Positions 51,188 to 60,455 of a stretch of 64,000 nt of DNA are shown in pieces; within the stretch, counting starts at the first letter, position 1; each line of letters starts with the position of its first letter. The DNA lies in NCBI GenBank assembly GCA_963665115.1, contig OY762007.1, positions 4,704,001 through 4,768,000 of the forward strand, read 5' to 3'. The notes beneath the pieces are model-generated. The model had not been told where the DNA came from. It saw nothing but the letters and a program-made list of their open reading frames with translations, and ran no database searches. This DNA comes from an uncultured Rivularia sp. (lineage in GTDB: Bacteria; Cyanobacteriota; Cyanobacteriia; Cyanobacteriales; Nostocaceae). Position numbers and translations under genes: made by a program.

Positions 51188-52057
51188 ATGTGGACTGAAA
51201 TTGATGCTCAAATTAGCCAAGCTACTGGGGAAAAATTCAAAACCCAGCAGCGGCGAAGTGTTTCTGGTGGGTGTATTAATCAAGGTTATTGTTTAAATGA
51301 TGGTGCGCGGACTTATTTTATGAAGTTAAATCAAGCTTCCCAAGTGGCGATGTTTGAAGCGGAAGCTTTGGGTTTAACACATATGTGCTATACAGATACC
51401 ATCCGCGTACCGGAACCTATTTGTTATGGTGTTGCGGGAAATTCCTGCTATATCGTTTTGGAATGGTTGGATATGGATAGGGGTGACAGTAAAGCTTACC
51501 AGGAGATGGGTAGGAAGTTAGGTCAAATGCATAAAGCATCTCTGAGCGAAACATTTGGCTGGAATATGAACAATACCATCGGTTCGACTCCACAAATTAA
51601 TACTCGCACTGATGATTGGGTAGAGTTTTGGACTAAACATCGTTTGGGATATCAGTTTGAATTAGCAAAGCGTCGTGGTGGTAGTTTTCCTCAAGCTGAT
51701 GATTTACTAAATGCCATTCCCGAGTTATTAGCAGGGCATGAAGTGCAGTCATCTTTGGTACATGGCGATCTATGGGGAGGGAATGCTGGATTTACTCACG
51801 AAGGGGAGCCAATAATTTTCGATCCGGCAACTTATTTCGGCGATAGGGAAGTTGATATTGCGATGACAGAAGTTTTTGGTGGTTTTCCGGCTGCTTTTTA
51901 TCAAGGTTATAACGAAGCGTTTCCGCTGGATGATGGGTATGAACGGCGGAAGACTTTGTATAATCTGTATCATATTTTGAATCATTTTAATTTGTTTGGT
52001 GGTGGGTATGGTTCTCAAGCGAATGGGATGATTGGGAGGATTTTGAGCAATAAATAA
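51188..52057 (+). CDS. Fructosamine kinase family protein
   Basis: GGCIN, LVHGDLWGGN and FDPATYFGDREVD. Confidence 0.92.
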   Translation: MWTEIDAQISQATGEKFKTQQRRSVSGGCINQGYCLNDGARTYFMKLNQASQVAMFEAEALGLTHMCYTDTIRVPEPICYGVAGNSCYIVLEWLDMDRGDSKAYQEMGRKLGQMHKASLSETFGWNMNNTIGSTPQINTRTDDWVEFWTKHRLGYQFELAKRRGGSFPQADDLLNAIPELLAGHEVQSSLVHGDLWGGNAGFTHEGEPIIFDPATYFGDREVDIAMTEVFGGFPAAFYQGYNEAFPLDDGYERRKTLYNLYHILNHFNLFGGGYGSQANGMIGRILSNK

Positions 52058-52127
52058 TCCTCACCCTCCAAGGGTGGGGCTACAGGAGCGAAGCCCACCT
52101 GCGTGGGCTAAATTGTAATAAGAAGAT

Positions 52128-53447
52128 TTAGTCTTTAATTTCTAAATCGTAGGCTTGGCAGAGGGATTTTAGGTTTTCTCGGAAGCGCGATCGCACTTCT
52201 GGGGGGGAGATGATTTCGCAGTCTTTGCCGTAGCGGAAGACTTCTCGGATTAGCCAGAAGGGATTTGCTACTTTTCGCACTACTTCGCGTATATCTCCAA
52301 CTTTTTCGTTGCTGATATCTTTATTAACGGAAGATGCTTTAGGTTTATATGCTTTTACCATTCCTTTGCAAAAGTGTAAGTGTACTTCCAAATAATCTAG
52401 ACCTTCGTCTCGCCATTGTCCTTTGACAGGTAAAATTGTTTTCACTCGATCAAAACGTAAACACCTATTATGTATGAGTTCTGGGTATTCAGGATTTTTT
52501 ATATCTTCAGTTTCATCGCACCAGATATTTAGGTAAAATCCCTTCTCCTCTTCAAAAGAAGTTTCTGCATAACGAACTGTAAATGCAATATACTCTTGTT
52601 GAGAATTTTTATAAAACAATCTGAAAGGTTCTTTTTTTTGACAAGATTGTTCGACTACTATACGCCATGATTGGTCTGGATGAATTAGTTGATTCATCAC
52701 TGATTGGCGTATTGCTGAATCCAAATTCCCTTGTTCTAACAACAAATTACCGAGGATTTGAGCTTTACTTACATCACCAGAATTTTTGAAAAGCGAAATA
52801 GCTTCATAAATTACTTCAATACGTGGATCTGAGCAAATATCGTTTATTATACCGTCAGTATTACTCCCTTCCCGCTCTAAGATTACCGATATAGTTTCTT
52901 CTCTCCCTGCCACCTGCCCACTGCTCCCTGCCTTAGATTTTAGATAATTTTCCGGCGGAATAGGAGTAACATTACTTTGAGATATACTTGTAATCTCAGA
53001 TGTATTTTTAAATTCTAATTGTTGGTTTAATTTTTTAGAGTGTTTTTCATTCCACTTATCCGCCCACTTCTGAGAAAATTTTTCTAAAATAATTGTTTTA
53101 TTCCTTGACCAAAGGCTCAAAGTAAAATGTAATTCTTTTCTACCTTGTTTTGGTGGCACCCGATGGTCGTCCAAAATTCCTAGAAAATCTTTCATAAGAT
53201 GAACTGCTTCCCTAACTCTTGTAGAAGTAAACTTTTCTTGAGTTTGGTATTGGGAAGTAAGTTTGACCAAATCTTTACAAGTCGTTTTCACTAAAAGCTT
53301 GTGATTTTTATTCTCTTCTTCTTTCCACTCACAAACTAATTCCAAATTCTCATACATAGTTAAGCCATTTTCCTTGAAGTCCAAAATTGCTTCAAGCAGA
53401 TATCTTGTTCTTTTCTCAGGTACTGGACCGTGGCTAATATTTGGCAT
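52128..53447 (-). CDS. CRISPR-associated-type WYL transcriptional regulator with an extra N-terminal domain
   Basis: FTVRYAE, YLNIWCDET, NRCLRFDRV and WLIREVFRYGKDCEIISPPEVR (WYL/WCX); divergent from the cas genes; likely start MPNISHG. Confidence 0.88.
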   Translation of the reverse strand: MPNISHGPVPEKRTRYLLEAILDFKENGLTMYENLELVCEWKEEENKNHKLLVKTTCKDLVKLTSQYQTQEKFTSTRVREAVHLMKDFLGILDDHRVPPKQGRKELHFTLSLWSRNKTIILEKFSQKWADKWNEKHSKKLNQQLEFKNTSEITSISQSNVTPIPPENYLKSKAGSSGQVAGREETISVILEREGSNTDGIINDICSDPRIEVIYEAISLFKNSGDVSKAQILGNLLLEQGNLDSAIRQSVMNQLIHPDQSWRIVVEQSCQKKEPFRLFYKNSQQEYIAFTVRYAETSFEEEKGFYLNIWCDETEDIKNPEYPELIHNRCLRFDRVKTILPVKGQWRDEGLDYLEVHLHFCKGMVKAYKPKASSVNKDISNEKVGDIREVVRKVANPFWLIREVFRYGKDCEIISPPEVRSRFRENLKSLCQAYDLEIKD

Positions 53448-53470
53448 CAGTGAAACGAACAGCTTTTCAA

Positions 53471-53590
53471 TTAGTTTAGGGTAATAAAAAAGTTTAGGGT
53501 ACCGATACATAAAATACCTACCCTAAACTAAATTTACCTTGCTATTGAGCAAGTTTTAGAAATTTTATGGTAACTATTGCATTAGGGTAT
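53471..53590. promoter_or_regulatory. Candidate operator in the divergent WYL/cas promoter
   Basis: TTAGTTTAGGGTA (53471), AGTTTAGGGTA (53491), inverted TACCCTAAACTAA (53519) and TTAGGGTA (53582). Confidence 0.6.
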
Positions 53591-53664
53591 ACCCCCAAAG
53601 CGACAGTGTTTACACAAGCAGCAATAGCTTCTGAAACAACTTAGTCATTTAAGGGAGTTAAAAT

Positions 53665-54081
53665 ATGATAATTCGTCAAACATTAATTGACGAGCTTGAT
53701 AGCTTATTAGAAACTCAACGTAGCAAGGGTTATAAAACTGCTTGGGTATGGTATGAAATCAAAAGCCAATCAGCCCCATTCTCGGAAGCGGAATTATACT
53801 ATATTGCGAACTTGCTAGGTTATAAGCCTGGATGGGCTAAATATAAAATCGAAGAGCAACAGGCAAACCAACTATTATATCAACCACTTACTCCACTGCA
53901 AAAGAGTTTGAATTTATTGGAGTTAGACGTTCCTTTTTATTCACAGGATTTGAAGCGTTCGTATAAGAGTAAAGCATTGAAGTTACATCCAGATAAAGGA
54001 GGTAGGCATGAAGATTTTATAGCCTTAAATAAGGCTTATCAGTATTTAAAAAATTATTTACGCGCAGAAGGTGTAATATAA
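53665..54081 (+). CDS. Small protein with C-terminal DnaJ (J) domain
   Basis: LKRSYKSKALKLHPDKGG...FIALNKAYQYL; AAGGGAG RBS. Confidence 0.88.
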   Translation: MIIRQTLIDELDSLLETQRSKGYKTAWVWYEIKSQSAPFSEAELYYIANLLGYKPGWAKYKIEEQQANQLLYQPLTPLQKSLNLLELDVPFYSQDLKRSYKSKALKLHPDKGGRHEDFIALNKAYQYLKNYLRAEGVI

Positions 54082-54122
54082 CCAAACAGAAGTTAAATAA
54101 GACATAATAGTTGGTATAAAAA

Positions 54123-54896
54123 ATGCATATACTTTTAGAAGAAATTATCGATATATATCAGGAAAAGGCACGTAAAGCTTTATCCAAAGATTTACAAATA
54201 TCTCTTAGTGAAAATATCCAAGTCAATTTTAATCAATTAATAAAGGATGATGAAGAATTATCTAATATAATTAATAATCTTAGCAATAATCTTGTCAAAG
54301 CAGTTATATTTGGTGGATGGGTTAGAGACTATACTTGTAACTATTTACAACAGCAAAATTATAAGCCTCGTGACATTGATATAGTTGTAAATGGCTTAAA
54401 TTTTAATCAACTTCAGAAATTTCTACCATCAAACACGAAAATCAATATCTTTGGTGGTTTTTTAATTGAAACTTCAAAAATTAAAATAGATATTTGGTTA
54501 TTAAAAGATACGTACTTGATTAAACGTTTGAATTTAGATGTAAAGTTTAATCAGCTACCAGAAACAACCGTTTTTCGTATCAATTCTATAATATTTAAGC
54601 CTCAACAATTTTGGTCAAAACCTGACATCTTTGATTTAGGTTGTGTTGATGCTTTAGTAAATAAAGTTATAGATTTTCAGTCTACTTATATTCCACTTCC
54701 AGAAATTCAAGTTGCACGCGCTCTTATATATTCAGCAAAATTTAAATTCTCCTTAAAATTAGAGGTTCATAATTTTATTAGAATGATATGTAATAGTGAT
54801 GTGGAAATTACTAATCAAAAAAACAATCTACTGTTGTACTGTCCTCAGCATCTACGTCAAAATTGTATAACTATGCTTAAAGATATAACTGATTGA
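54123..54896 (+). CDS. Nucleotidyltransferase resembling the CCA-adding enzyme/poly(A) polymerase head domain
   Basis: VIFGGWVRD, PRDIDIVV (DxD), IDIW and FRINSI motifs. Confidence 0.72.
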   Translation: MHILLEEIIDIYQEKARKALSKDLQISLSENIQVNFNQLIKDDEELSNIINNLSNNLVKAVIFGGWVRDYTCNYLQQQNYKPRDIDIVVNGLNFNQLQKFLPSNTKINIFGGFLIETSKIKIDIWLLKDTYLIKRLNLDVKFNQLPETTVFRINSIIFKPQQFWSKPDIFDLGCVDALVNKVIDFQSTYIPLPEIQVARALIYSAKFKFSLKLEVHNFIRMICNSDVEITNQKNNLLLYCPQHLRQNCITMLKDITD

Positions 54897-54929
54897 GAAA
54901 AATATTTTATATTAAACAGGTTATTCAAA

Positions 54930-55925
54930 GTGTTTCGGAAAATATATAAAGGCTTTGATCAAAAACTTTTATTACTAGTACAATTGATTTCGGAATGTAA
55001 TAATTATATATGGATATGTGACCGAAATACATATTGGTTATATTATATATTTCCTAGTATTTGGACTGCGGCGATTCGAGGAGTAAAAATTTGTCTACTC
55101 ACAAATCCTTGTGCGGACAACAAGGAAAACTATAGACGATGGCTTCTCAAACAGATTGGTTGCCATGTATACACTATAGATTCTCTGCCTTTTTATGGTT
55201 TTTTATTTGAACAATATGGGAATACAAAGTTAGCGTTAATAGATGATAATATAAAATTTGATAACAATAGTGTAGAATATACTGAGCGAAAAGTAAGATT
55301 ATATACAGAAAAATTAGATTATTCAGCTATATGTAATTTTTGGAATTTATTAAACTTTTGGCAAATTAAACTTTCTAGTATGCAACGAAAAGAGTTTCTC
55401 TTTGAAACTTGCTCTCAAAAAAAACTTTTTGATAAATTACGTAATGTAGAACAATATCGAAATGCACAATTTTCTATAGAAACGATTGATGTTAGAAATG
55501 TAATGCTTTTACAACATTATATTAAAGAATATAAATTTATTCAAATCAGCCAACTAGTTAATGATTTATATAATGATAATAACTTTGAACTATTTCAACC
55601 TTTGAAACTGACTTTTGAAGACAGTACATATTCAATTATTACGCCACCAATAGTAGAAATAAATTCAAAAAAACTTGTAGTAATTGAAGGAAACACCAGA
55701 TTTTTTTACTGTTTGCAGAAAGAATTATATAAAATTAAAGTTGTAATAGTAAATAATGTTACCGAGCCACTACCCGGTGAAGCATTTTCAATAAGTGATG
55801 TCAATCTTACTTCTCTCACATTACCTTTAGATGTTTTAATTAGTAAATTAAGCCGGAAAAGCTTCCGAAAGATAGAGGAAAAAATTCATATACAAATGTT
55901 ACCTTCAAATTTGATAACTGAGTAA
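54930..55925 (+). CDS. Hypothetical protein; possible PLD-like N-terminal and ParB/Srx-like C-terminal domains
   Basis: AAIRGVKICLL and KLALID in the N-half; TPPIVE...VVIEGNTR in the C-half. Confidence 0.55.
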   Translation: MFRKIYKGFDQKLLLLVQLISECNNYIWICDRNTYWLYYIFPSIWTAAIRGVKICLLTNPCADNKENYRRWLLKQIGCHVYTIDSLPFYGFLFEQYGNTKLALIDDNIKFDNNSVEYTERKVRLYTEKLDYSAICNFWNLLNFWQIKLSSMQRKEFLFETCSQKKLFDKLRNVEQYRNAQFSIETIDVRNVMLLQHYIKEYKFIQISQLVNDLYNDNNFELFQPLKLTFEDSTYSIITPPIVEINSKKLVVIEGNTRFFYCLQKELYKIKVVIVNNVTEPLPGEAFSISDVNLTSLTLPLDVLISKLSRKSFRKIEEKIHIQMLPSNLITE

Positions 55926-56033
55926 GTAGAGATACGATGGGTGTATGGCACAAATAAATATTGCAACTACTAAAAATAAATTAGATTTGATGGCTTACTT
56001 TATAACTGTTCACTGATAACTGTTAACTGTAAA

Positions 56034-56864
56034 ATGCCTCACAGTCTAATCCTCAACCTCACCCCAAAATCCCCCATCTACCCCCAATACCTCACCGGAA
56101 GACACTTACACGCTTTATTCCTCACCCTTGTAAGTTCCGTTGACAAAGAATTAGGAGCCTATTTACACGACTCTCAAGCCGATAAAGCTTTTACGCTTTC
56201 CCCTTTGCAAATAATCAAAAATTCTCCTATTCATAAAGGATATAAATTAAAATCCCAACATCAAGAAATGATTCCGACGGGTACGCCTTGTTGGTGGAGA
56301 ATTTCTTTACTCGATGATGCACTATTTGGCAAGCTAACTCAACTTTGGCTAAACCTTAATCCACAACAGCCTTGGCATTTAGGCTCTGCCGACTTGTATA
56401 TTACCAGCATTCAAGGTACTCCCCAATCTACGCAACCTTGGGCTAATGCTTGCACCTATACACAACTTTACGAACAAGCCAGCGATTCGGAGCGGATTAT
56501 TTCACTTAATTTCGCAACTCCCACGGCTTGGAGACAGGGGAAATACGATAGTACGTTACCGACAAGGGAATCTGTGTTTAAATCTTTGCTTTCTCGGTGG
56601 AATAAATATAGCGGTATTGAGCTTGAAGGAATAAATTTTGATGCAATTTTTCCCAGCTTTATCAACATCCATACCGAAATAGTTCCCGATTCTCGTAGTA
56701 AATTCATCGGTGTTGTTGGTGAAGTTAGCTATCGAATCATGGGTGATGTTGAAGCAGTTCAAATAAAGCAAATTAACGCTTTAGCTGACTTTGCTTTATA
56801 TGCCGGAATTGGTAGAAAAACCACGATGGGAATGGGAATGGGGAGAAGAGTTAGGAGTTTGTAG
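56034..56864 (+). CDS. cas6: CRISPR endoribonuclease Cas6
   Basis: GRHLHALFL, FATPTA and C-terminal glycine-rich YAGIGRKTTMGMG. Confidence 0.95.
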   Translation: MPHSLILNLTPKSPIYPQYLTGRHLHALFLTLVSSVDKELGAYLHDSQADKAFTLSPLQIIKNSPIHKGYKLKSQHQEMIPTGTPCWWRISLLDDALFGKLTQLWLNLNPQQPWHLGSADLYITSIQGTPQSTQPWANACTYTQLYEQASDSERIISLNFATPTAWRQGKYDSTLPTRESVFKSLLSRWNKYSGIELEGINFDAIFPSFINIHTEIVPDSRSKFIGVVGEVSYRIMGDVEAVQIKQINALADFALYAGIGRKTTMGMGMGRRVRSL

Positions 56865-56916
56865 TAAGGGCTTTAGCCCTGTCTTTAAAGAATTGAAGGC
56901 TGAAGCCCTTACTACG
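56861..56916. repeat. REP-like inverted repeat between cas6 and cas4
   Basis: GTAGTAAGGGCTT...AAGCCCTTACTAC. Confidence 0.7.
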
Positions 56917-56950
56917 AACTTTGAATTTTAATCAACATTTAATCAAAAAT

Positions 56951-57541
56951 ATGAACAACACAGATTACATAACTATCGCTTCTTTAAATCAATATTCCTA
57001 TTGTCACCATCGTTGCTGGAGGATGTTTTGTTTGTGTGAGTTTACTGATAATCAATACACTATTGAAGGAACAAGTTTACACGAACGAGTTCACACTGTT
57101 GGTGATGTAAATAAAGAAGATATTTGGCAAGTTCGCGCTATTTGGTTGAAGTCGGAGAAATATAAGTTAATCGGAAAATCAGATTTGATTGAGTTAGAAA
57201 ATGGTGAATGGTATCCGGTGGAATATAAACGAGGAAAAAAAGGTGAATGGGATAATGATGAATTACAAGTTTGCGCTCAAGCTTTGTGTTTGGAGGAAAT
57301 GACGGGAAAAAATATTACTACTGGCTATGTTTATTATGCTCAAACTAATAAACGTCAATTGATAGAAATTAATGATGATTTGAGAAATGAAACTATTGCC
57401 ACGATTGCTGAGGTTACGAAGTTGTTAGAAACCGGAAAAATGCCACCAGCAGTTTATAGCAAACGCTGTAAAGGATGCAGTCTTTATTCACAATGTTTAC
57501 CAATGGCTGTTGATAAAGTGAAACGCTATCAAGAAATTTAA
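56951..57541 (+). CDS. cas4: CRISPR-associated exonuclease Cas4
   Basis: YCHHRC, GKSD, PVEYKRG, QVCAQALCLEEM and CKGCSLYSQC. Confidence 0.95.
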   Translation: MNNTDYITIASLNQYSYCHHRCWRMFCLCEFTDNQYTIEGTSLHERVHTVGDVNKEDIWQVRAIWLKSEKYKLIGKSDLIELENGEWYPVEYKRGKKGEWDNDELQVCAQALCLEEMTGKNITTGYVYYAQTNKRQLIEINDDLRNETIATIAEVTKLLETGKMPPAVYSKRCKGCSLYSQCLPMAVDKVKRYQEI

Positions 57542-57589
57542 TATTTTTTCATTGTTCATTGTTCATTGTTCATTGATAACTGATTAATC

Positions 57590-58594
57590 ATGGGTACAGT
57601 TTACGTTACACAAATGGATTCTTTTGTGGGAAAAGTTGACGAGCGTCTTACCGTTAAATTTGAAAAAAAGAATATTTTAGATGTTCCTTTACTCAAAGTT
57701 GATGGCATCGTTGTTTTAGGACGAGCAACTATATCGCCTGCGGTCGTTTACGAACTATTAGAACGCCATATTCCTCTCACCTTTCTTACAGAAACTGGTC
57801 GTTATTTAGGCAGATTAGAACCAGAAGTTAGTAAAAATCTTTTTCTCCGCAAAGCTCAATGGCAAGCTTCCGATAATTCTCAGTTAGCTGTTGGTGCGGT
57901 ACAAAGTTTTGTCAGAGGTAAACTCAAGAATTACCGCAATATTATGGTTCGTCGTCAAAGGGAATCTGCCGAACTCGATTTATCTAAAAATATTACCCGT
58001 TTAGAAAATGCCATTACACCCATCGATATCACTCAAAATATTGATTCTTTGCGAGGTTTAGAAGGTGCGGGTAGTGCTGCTTACTTCGGTGGTTTTGACC
58101 AAATGATTCGCGCTACAGAGTTTAAATTTACTCGTCGAGTTCGTCGTCCGCCAACAGATCCCGTAAATTCTTTACTTAGTTTTGGCTATTCGCTGCTACG
58201 TCACGATGTCCAAGGTGCAGTAAATATTGTCGGATTCGATCCATATCTAGGATATCTACATTGCGATCGCTATGGAAGACCTTCTTTAGCATTGGATTTG
58301 ATGGAGGAATTTCGCCCTTTGGTTGTGGATGCGATGGTGTTATCTACTTTGAATAAGGAATTGTTGAAACCCGAAGATTTTCAAAGCGAACCCGTAAGCA
58401 ATGCTGTTTCTCTGACTAAAGAAGGACGAAAAACATTTCTCAAACTGTATACCCAGAAGAAACAAACTCGATTTACCCATCCAGTAATGAAACGCAAATG
58501 CAGTTACCAAGAGGCTTTTGAAATTCAAGCCAGATTATTAGGAAAATATCTGATGGGTGAAACCGATAAATATCCACCATTGGTACGTTGGTAA
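57590..58594 (+). CDS. cas1: CRISPR integrase Cas1 (type I-D-like)
   Basis: LRGLEGAGSAAYF, RRPPTDPVNSLLSFGY, GYLH and LDLMEEFRP. Confidence 0.97.
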   Translation: MGTVYVTQMDSFVGKVDERLTVKFEKKNILDVPLLKVDGIVVLGRATISPAVVYELLERHIPLTFLTETGRYLGRLEPEVSKNLFLRKAQWQASDNSQLAVGAVQSFVRGKLKNYRNIMVRRQRESAELDLSKNITRLENAITPIDITQNIDSLRGLEGAGSAAYFGGFDQMIRATEFKFTRRVRRPPTDPVNSLLSFGYSLLRHDVQGAVNIVGFDPYLGYLHCDRYGRPSLALDLMEEFRPLVVDAMVLSTLNKELLKPEDFQSEPVSNAVSLTKEGRKTFLKLYTQKKQTRFTHPVMKRKCSYQEAFEIQARLLGKYLMGETDKYPPLVRW

Positions 58595-58623
58595 TCAAGT
58601 AAAAAAATCATCTCTAACAATCA

Positions 58624-58911
58624 ATGAACGTTGTTGTCAGTTACGATATTTCCGAAGATAAACGCCGCACAAAAATCCATAAGATCCTTAAATCTTACGG
58701 ACAATGGGTACAGTACAGTATTTTTGAATGTCAACTCACCGATACTCAATATGCCAAATTGAGAAGTCGTTTGAATAAGTTAATTAAATCCGACACCGAT
58801 AGCATCCGCTTTTATTTTTTATGTGCCTGCTGTTTTGGTAAAGTGGAACGTATCGGTGGAGAAAAGCCTCGCGATGACAGCATTTTCTTTGCTGAATTCA
58901 CGGATGGGTAG
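58624..58911 (+). CDS. cas2: CRISPR-associated Cas2
   Basis: VVSYDISEDKRR and QYSIFEC. Confidence 0.97.
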   Translation: MNVVVSYDISEDKRRTKIHKILKSYGQWVQYSIFECQLTDTQYAKLRSRLNKLIKSDTDSIRFYFLCACCFGKVERIGGEKPRDDSIFFAEFTDG

Positions 58912-59123
58912 GTGTTGAAAAACAAGACTTAAAAAAAATGGCTGAATCCCAGAGTTGATAAGCCTTTGAGGCTAAAAACATTCCCAACCCATCCGCGATG
59001 CTTACCCACAAAGGATTTCAGCCATTTATTCCCTTCTCATTTTCATTCTCACGTGTTATCATTAATTCATCCGTGAATCCGAACCTTGAAAACCTTATAT
59101 TTAAAGGCTTCCAGATGCCCGCA
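58912..59123 (+). promoter_or_regulatory. CRISPR leader
   Basis: Non-coding region between cas2 and the first repeat, containing ACCTTGAAAAC. Confidence 0.75.
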
Positions 59124-60455
59124 GTTGAAATTCACATTAATCCCTATCAGGGATTGAAACACCAAAAACTTCGGCTTCGGCTAGTATCGTTGCAGTTGAA
59201 ATTCACATTAATCCCTATCAGGGATTGAAACGCAATAGAAGACTTATCCAATTATAAAGCTATAATGTTGAAATTCACATTAATCCCTATCAGGGATTGA
59301 AACGCTTGCAATTGGCTGTGTAGACTGACCGGAAACAAGTTGAAATTCACATTAATCCCTATCAGGGATTGAAACCTGTAGTTGGTCGGTATTGCGCTGG
59401 TTCATGGCATTGTTGAAATTCACATTAATCCCTATCAGGGATTGAAACGTATTCTGGGACATCTCCGGGTTTAACTGGGTCATAGTTGAAATTCACATTA
59501 ATCCCTATCAGGGATTGAAACCCATATTTTATTCCCCGGTTGATAAAGCCAAGCTTGTTGAAATTCACATTAATCCCTATCAGGGATTGAAACACAAAGA
59601 TATCAAATCGTTAATGCGCTATATCGAAGTTGAAATTCACATTAATCCCTATCAGGGATTGAAACTGACTAACAATTTATGGACTTTACAAGAAATACTT
59701 GTTGAAATTCACATTAATCCCTATCAGGGATTGAAACTTTTCATTAATTGATTGTGGTGCAAAATGCAATGAGTTGAAATTCACATTAATCCCTATCAGG
59801 GATTGAAACGAGGAAGATTTGGTGGAAGTTGAGCGGTTGTTTGGTTGAAATTCACATTAATCCCTATCAGGGATTGAAACAGAATCTCCTCCCCAGGAGT
59901 AAAAGTTAAAGGTAGTTGAAATTCACATTAATCCCTATCAGGGATTGAAACAGTATAGTCAAGCTGGGTTAAATGAAATTGAAGCAGAGTTGAAATTCAC
60001 ATTAATCCCTATCAGGGATTGAAACTTAAGCGAAGACGCAAGGGTCAATACCAACAGCAAGTTGAAATTCACATTAATCCCTATCAGGGATTGAAACTTA
60101 AATTATAGGTAGGTATTACAGCTACCTATAATTTGAAAATCACATTAATCCCTATTAGGGATTGAAACTTACAAATGTAAGATGCAGAGGGAAACTTGAA
60201 AGGTTGAAATTCACATTAATCCCTATTAGGGATTGAAACTCAGACATTGCTGAATCAATATTAGAACATCCAGAGTTGAAATTCACATTAATCCCTATTA
60301 GGGATTGAAACTCCTTCTAAAACATCATTTCCTTCTCCTCCTTCTTGTTGAAATTCACATTAATCCCTATCAGGGATTGAAACCAATCATTGATGGAGTG
60401 GCTTTTTGCTAGCTTGTTGTTGAAAATCACAGTAATCCCTATCAGGGATTAAAAC
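59124..60455 (+). CRISPR. CRISPR array: 19 repeats of 37 bp (GTTGAAATTCACATTAATCCCTATCAGGGATTGAAAC) and 18 spacers of 34-37 bp
   Basis: Counted directly: repeats 1-14 and 18 identical, 15-17 TATTAGGG variants, 19 degenerate (trailer end); AATCCCT/AGGGATT hairpin. Confidence 0.98.

Follow-up and report, generated by a model that had tools for sequence, protein, structure and literature searches.

A predicted nucleotide-signaling defense cassette in place of the interference genes of a type I-D CRISPR locus in an uncultured Rivularia

CBASS, Pycsar, Hailong, and Panoptes are immune systems that pair a nucleotide synthase with a sensor-effector. Hailong and Panoptes are named as inhibitory-signal systems in the part available to us of a report on Clover, in which the dGTPase CloA accompanies CloB, a nucleotidyltransferase (NTase) making the inhibitory dinucleotide p3diT (10.1101/2025.07.09.663793). 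At type I-D CRISPR loci, a WYL regulator of the Sll7009 type acts as a repressor, and WYL regulators adjoin many defense systems, according to the accessible portion of PMC9122601; an excerpt of another study describes EADs as small non-enzymatic domains said to recruit effectors (PMC7159879). The locus analyzed here lies in a 64,000-nucleotide stretch of DNA (the window; positions 4,704,001 to 4,768,000 of contig OY762007.1, or G000:C1:4704001-4768000) from the 8.69-Mb genome (guanine-plus-cytosine [GC] content 37.9%, 99.9% complete) of an uncultured Rivularia sp. There, a low-GC four-gene cassette replaces the I-D interference genes cas3-cas10d-csc2-csc1, and we consider it probable that this cassette is a mobile, CRISPR-independent anti-phage system acting through a nucleotide signal.

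Of the genus relatives, 16 have a close cas6d, and every one of them carried I-D effector genes directly upstream of it (cas3 first in 13, cas10d first in 3, with G010 split over two contigs), in keeping with the premise of the original prediction that cyanobacterial I-D loci usually have these genes between WYL and cas6. Within the window, tblastn searches with eight effector proteins of two relatives gave zero matches, and a whole-genome effector search placed I-D effector matches at contig ends only, with cas10d, csc2, csc1, and cas3 all missing from this operon; the absence of the four genes and of any remnant in the locus, which the original prediction reported, is borne out. Compared with the nearest relative, G007, about 3.2 kb (52784-56001) had been exchanged for the cassette: DNA identity stopped at 52783, inside the WYL gene, and returned at 56002. 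Positions 53009-55890 instead aligned to a Calothrix PCC 7103 scaffold (68.6% over 2899 nucleotides), which delimits a left crossover zone within the WYL gene (52784..53008) and a right junction zone (55891..56001) closing at a short dispersed repeat element before cas6, whose junction 11-mer has 148 copies in the genome. Short-read unitigs from X2 and X3, two of three runs from one study (possibly the source sample), covered 51500-57577 with zero differences and spanned both junctions. The swap of the I-D interference module for the cassette is real.

The expected divergent WYL gene is present (52128..53510, - strand; likely start M22 at 53447), not as an ordinary helix-turn-helix (HTH)-WYL regulator but as an EAD4-WYL-WCX protein (EAD4 PF19959, 6e-30; WCX; PADLOC WYL) from which the resident-type HTH is absent. 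Its front (amino acids 1-150) was identical at 66/129 and 60/131 positions (46-51%) to the cassette WYLs of Calothrix and Scytonema; its rear (amino acids 301-460) was identical at 134/159 and 142/160 positions (84-89%) to the resident HTH-WYLs of G007 and G016, and in a tree this rear half clustered with the resident clade (support 100/99). By these comparisons the gene is a chimera of a cassette EAD4 front and the WYL/WCX rear of the resident I-D regulator. Because it is chimeric, the cassette swap probably ran through WYL; we infer a left crossover inside this gene, where recombination likely let the cassette in, and a right junction at the common short repeat. The cassette is also rare and looks foreign. 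The GC content of the NTase gene (27%) and its iHKD-ParB neighbor (28%) stands against 38-41% for the cas genes and flank, and the family was found in 1/401 genomes in one search and 2/401 in another, the window's own genome counted.

Behind a divergent promoter region that arrived with the cassette (53448..53664, within the 2899-nucleotide Calothrix alignment), for which a promoter scan stayed at chance level (27 found versus 36 expected), lie three + strand genes. The first encodes a J-domain (DnaJ) protein (53665..54081; PF00226, 5.8e-8) with its HPD intact and a GYKxxW motif twice at its N terminus, the latter matching no family; its orthologues in both Nostocales cassettes were 59-60% identical, and every atlas match was <0.8. 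Elsewhere in the genome, a 271-amino-acid protein in a mobile-looking region (G000:1723409-1724221) joins the same N-terminal repeated motif to a J-like part. The second gene (54123..54896) encodes a short class II CCA-adding-like NTase, the predicted signal synthase, with a PolyA_pol head under the Pfam cut-off. It fits the class II (CCA-adding) superfamily in its GGxxRD..DxD motif, third Asp, and head-neck fold; D84, D86, D123, and GGWxRD were invariant in an alignment of 15, so that the catalytic residues, as read from the sequence, are intact. An NTase profile against PDB aligned along Aquifex tRNA NTases (E 0.07-0.1), and the best Foldseek matches of its model (predicted local distance difference test score [pLDDT] 64) were CCA-adding enzymes (E 4e-7). 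The base-template motif of CCA-adding enzymes is known as EDxxR; here it is replaced, and at 257 amino acids versus ~430 in full-length CCA enzymes the protein lacks the body and tail domains, which together rule out a true CCA-adding enzyme. Nor did it behave as a CBASS CD-NTase, giving zero PADLOC matches and fold matches to CCA enzymes.

The third gene (54930..55925) encodes the predicted nucleotide sensor or effector, an iHKD (PF24402, 4e-26) plus ParB-CE (PF24392) protein. The full-length protein scored 22.9 bits for ParB-CE against a Pfam cut-off of 23, and its C-terminal 171 amino acids alone 25.6; an atlas placed it in the ParB-CE cluster (0.93). SIITPPxxE, GxxR, and RxIE were invariant (G254 and R257 in 22 rows), and its AlphaFold2 model had a pLDDT of 89.6. 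The ParB-CE assignment follows from the Pfam score, the atlas cluster, and the invariant GxxR. Ratios of nonsynonymous to synonymous substitution rates (dN/dS) of 0.11-0.34 for the three cassette genes (12 pairs; window, Calothrix, and Scytonema) show, at the sequence level, that they are under purifying selection.

The same four genes occurred together in Calothrix PCC 7103 and Scytonema NUACC26, and the 18-21 kb read there contained no cas gene. The original prediction had offered a WYL-linked defense cassette tied to CRISPR; a four-gene cassette does fill the I-D slot, but it is whole without cas genes elsewhere and so independent of CRISPR. Both of these cassettes adjoin an HTH-WYL gene, an MBL gene, and E2-E1-JAB. 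In four genus relatives the cassette-neighbor position is filled by a gene for 518-523 amino acids, and the single one scanned encodes a DRT4/6 reverse transcriptase, which argues that the position is a defense slot; an operon of HTH-WYL, MBL, E2-E1-JAB, and a 211-amino-acid gene is conserved beside it (L069:11011-16143; L132, L133, L135, L136). All 6 EAD4-WYL fusions found paired with equal-sized contigs carrying NTase or iHKD-ParB matches, and in Tolypothrix the tags 67310/67330/67340 stand side by side.

An iHKD-ParB profile recovered no fewer than 518 clusters (50% identity). Among the best 150 of these, 106 were patatin-fused and 3 were single NTase-patatin-iHKD-ParB chains (109 with patatin); other extensions comprised 3 Cap12-type TIR, 1 DUF4062, 1 PNP-type, 1 weak cyclase-like, and 3 unassigned, and 32 had none, many of them fragments. 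Both catalytic motifs were present in 75/102 full patatins. The patatin-less form was also seen in Tolypothrix, Nostoc, and Limnoraphis. In the sensor tree the patatin-less Nostocales clade is nested among patatin forms, and an NTase-paired clade is separated from an AEP/TIR clade (100/99), although kin share labels and co-evolution is not proven thereby. The neighbor in 23 non-cyanobacterial loci was an upstream NTase in 9, a downstream AEP-like gene in 7, a minimal NTase in 1, and a gene for 155-166 amino acids in 5, and lay outside the sequence read in 1; searched against a reference set, none of the 23 had cas genes. The 155-166-amino-acid gene, upstream of patatin-iHKD-ParB with zero Pfam matches (L090-L094), is a possible third kind of partner. 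Six cyanobacterial contexts were read, 2 cas-linked (the window and L139) and 4 not (L069, L070, the 3-kb L081, and L207). In L081:481-1825, an 81% DNA relative, a deletion fuses the WYL rear straight to iHKD-ParB, with the J and NTase genes gone; in L207:8699-10054, iHKD-ParB-CE bears a hydrophobic N-terminal extension, and no polymerase gene was recognized beside it. The occurrence of the cassette away from cas genes and the fusion partners of the family are direct observations.

Work by Nicastro et al. in 2023 is reportedly the likely source of the ParB-CE, iHKD, and AEP-1D Pfam families, and the gene pairing may already have been predicted in print. Our literature searches found no paper, experimental or other, on this system, nor do the parts available of 10.64898/2026.10.19.760177, PMC12704722, and 10.64898/2026.01.15.699771 describe it.

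In the mechanism that we favor, the NTase would link (d)NTPs template-free to form a di- or oligonucleotide, and ParB-CE would bind that nucleotide, with iHKD as a dimerizing or nucleic-acid-binding scaffold. In most relatives, nucleotide binding would gate the fused patatin, TIR, or membrane effector, so that the infected cell is killed or stalled; the Nostocales form would have lost the patatin, and ParB-CE itself would most likely be a nucleotide-consuming effector. We lean toward the signal being an inhibitory guard, as it is in Clover; an activating messenger is possible but less probable, and within this split the NTase being itself the toxin is unlikely. Several points weigh against this mechanism. 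The J protein is left unexplained by it, and PADLOC models cover neither the NTase nor the J gene and gave a spurious weak iHKD-ParB match only. The tie to CloB comes from gene layout, not from CloB sequence. Foldseek with the iHKD-ParB-CE model matched the PLD/HKD half and did not confirm the ParB half, hhalign to a canonical ParB reached only E 0.11, and the step that makes ParB-CE an effector draws on a Pfam name. The window protein (331 amino acids) has no extension and no recognizable fused effector. Finally, entry by WYL homology does not explain a second cassette landing, on a Kovacikia plasmid described below, because the WYL there is clipped, not fused. The patatin genes of the window's genome lie far from the cassette.

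Downstream of the junction, the open reading frames lie where the original prediction had placed them, the three non-cas genes being followed by intact cas6d (56034..56864, + strand; PDLC02042, 1e-151; 96-97% to G007/G003), cas4 (56921..57541, +; library matches), cas1d (57590..58594, +; TIGR04093 over cut-off), and cas2 (58624..58911, +; library matches), a leader (58912..59123, +), and a CRISPR array (59124..60455, +). In its Cas6d, Cas4, Cas1d, Cas2, leader, and hairpin repeat, this locus fits type I-D, but with the four effector genes missing it is not a complete I-D system. The array, said to be homogeneous, consists of 19 repeats of 37 nucleotides (with 18 spacers of 34-37 nucleotides), but four trailer-side repeats carry 1-3 mismatches. 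No self-target was found in a search with its spacers. Spacer 13 is one base shorter in the contig of one run (window:60042), probably an assembly error of the window. The leader was 74% identical over 199 nucleotides to that of an orphan array at G000:2191811 (L012:9812-10134), whose 5 repeats lie 5 mismatches from the window's and whose cognate effector is absent; further arrays occur at G000:88749, 737288, and 1269480 (9, 21, and 3 repeats).

Under the nucleotide-signal explanation, cas6-cas4-cas1-cas2 and the array would be what remains of the resident system, and they now follow the cassette promoter. As a tentative alternative, compatible with that explanation, they may have been kept to feed CRISPR RNAs (crRNAs) in trans to another I-D Cascade or a type III system. 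The effectors that the original prediction suggested might exist elsewhere do so in part: a second I-D locus with a complete effector set (cas3, cas10d, csc2, csc1, cas6, cas4, cas1, cas2, and WYL) lies across contig ends (L010:16427-19926, L011:1-12102), and RAMP clusters occur at 1.45 and 1.69 Mb, but the second system is non-cognate to the window locus by its own cas6, cas1, and repeat, and a genome search with one model found no Cas12k (Tns genes were not searched). Its arrays of 22, 28, and 25 repeats (75) belong to another repeat family, with 19/37 positions in common with the window's, and its effectors are 26-45% identical to the relatives' cognate ones, which speaks against supply in trans, as do its separate adaptation genes. 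In favor of it, the two I-D repeats end in the same 11 nucleotides and fold into similar hairpins, and in Anabaena it has been demonstrated that Cas6 cross-cleaves and that remote arrays are used, going by the available part of 10.1101/2020.04.14.041012. The frameshift in the second cas3 was missing in 2/3 runs and contigs continue across the cas10d junction, which also counts in favor; run X2, however, agrees with the frameshift, and the assembly breaks the second cas6 and WYL. The low dN/dS of the window cas genes cannot date the effector loss. As to the second locus itself, ~13 cas10d codons are missing at the junction, a 750-nucleotide repeat-filled gap precedes csc2, and the splits in cas3, cas6, WYL, and a nearby copper ATPase are at least partly assembly error. 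A CRISPR-associated transposon (V-K or I-B) was rejected as the user of the array, given no Cas12k and, in a genome search with one model, no Cas7b of the I-B type that this slot can carry; the Tns genes lay outside both searches.

MenT offers a precedent for NTase toxins. It is unlikely, though conceivable, that the NTase is a toxin adding bases to the ends of tRNA or other RNA with iHKD-ParB-CE as antitoxin or sensor, or that the patatin-less form is a remnant deprived of its effector. The nearest folds are indeed tRNA NTases, the window form has no fused effector, and in the metagenome relative L081 the NTase and most of the WYL are gone. However, the same NTase stands beside patatin-fused forms and is exchangeable for an AEP primase, the tail of full-length CCA enzymes is absent, and the patatin-less form is intact and under purifying selection in the window, Calothrix, and Scytonema and occurs in further genera too.

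We give little credence to functional coupling of the cassette to the CRISPR leftovers, for example through dormancy buying time for spacer acquisition or through use of Cas6 products. Support comes from plasmid pA of Kovacikia minuta (L139:6918-16824), a distant cyanobacterium; the plasmid carries a 5'-clipped WYL, NTase, patatin-iHKD-ParB, MNT-HEPN, cas6d-cas4-cas1-cas2, and 16 repeats, with the I-D effector genes all absent as in the window. Its NTase and patatin-iHKD-ParB genes have a GC content of 33-36% versus 49-50%. The Kovacikia and window proteins are 42-44% identical and the WYL falls in a different clade, from which we infer a separate replacement. Two separate lineages carry this rare family in one slot, where each has lost all four effector genes but retained cas6-cas2 and an array intact; neither this nor any other non-cas cassette was seen at 149 other cas6d loci from 146 genomes. 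The window genes also share one orientation and lie 41, 33, and 108 nucleotides apart, and the scan lists no + strand terminator between them. The slot is unstable anyway: csc2 was nearby in 108 of the 149 loci (hand count), and 38 read of the remaining 41 had an I-B module (16), type III genes (2), csc1 at a contig edge (1), partial deletions (4), total loss (1), a lone cas6 (11), or nothing informative (3). The WYL-to-cas6 slot is a swap site for I-D, I-B, and III modules, so two cassette landings weigh less, though not nothing. Across L165-L204 the slot held two I-D effector orders, I-B, type III, or tandem I-D modules (L203), and lone cas6d was common. Against coupling, too, a WYL gene or what is left of one is present in 5/6 cyanobacterial contexts and offers a homology route for landing; a degenerate repeat was found in neither cassette, and the spacer-promoter match was not above chance. 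The original prediction asked whether these genes recur next to cas6/cas1 or in defense islands: they do so once beside cas genes (Kovacikia pA) and in islands of Calothrix and Scytonema, but cas linkage stands at 2/6 cyanobacterial contexts and 0/23 others. The fullest version of coupling, a nucleotide-signal family whose ParB fold reads a new signal and which repeatedly displaces I-D interference and keeps Cas6, adaptation, and array as working partners, is equally improbable. Misassembly or the neutral arrival of unrelated genes, to which single-base errors elsewhere in the assembly lend some color, is contradicted by unitigs spanning both junctions and by four genes that travel together, and is very improbable.

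For a family of at least 518 clusters, the window provides a small, clonable test case, with natural patatin, TIR, membrane, and effector-less forms as built-in controls. Finding a product would reveal a new immune nucleotide and show the ParB fold in a new role. The WYL-to-cas6 slot can admit a non-Cas system, with the crossover readable inside the regulator gene; were coupling true, an innate module would be standing in for Cascade.

With cyanobacterial I-D loci under Sll7009-type WYL control the locus shares position, cas6d-cas4-cas1d-cas2, leader, repeat, and WYL rear, and differs in lacking cas3, cas10d, csc2, and csc1 and in its EAD4 N terminus. CRISIS are Cascade-repressed embedded defense cassettes with a crRNA-like mini-array matching the cassette promoter; a cassette of this type was ruled out, no such mini-array being found and the cognate Cascade being absent. 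Like CBASS, Pycsar, Hailong, and Panoptes, the family has a synthase and sensor-effector fusions in which patatin, Cap12-TIR, or membrane effectors can stand in for one another, but the window has a class II CCA-like NTase instead of a CD-NTase or cyclase (Hailong HalB is a weak fold match, E 0.013) and iHKD-ParB-CE as sensor. Clover shares the two-gene layout with a small Pol-beta NTase, and the window NTase profile finds two short NTases, distantly related to it, behind dGTPases (hhalign 97%); the window differs in having iHKD-ParB-CE as partner and no adjacent HD dGTPase. Clover-like operons of a dGTPase and a short CCA-like NTase occur in two genomes of the phylum (L160:9287-11540 and L161:9044-11130, the latter beside IetAS). 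The predicted ParB-CE/iHKD/AEP-1D conflict systems (PF24392, PF24402, PF24387) have the same domains and a paired nucleotide polymerase gene, whereas the window form is effector-less, brings its own EAD4-WYL and J genes, and sits in a CRISPR effector slot.

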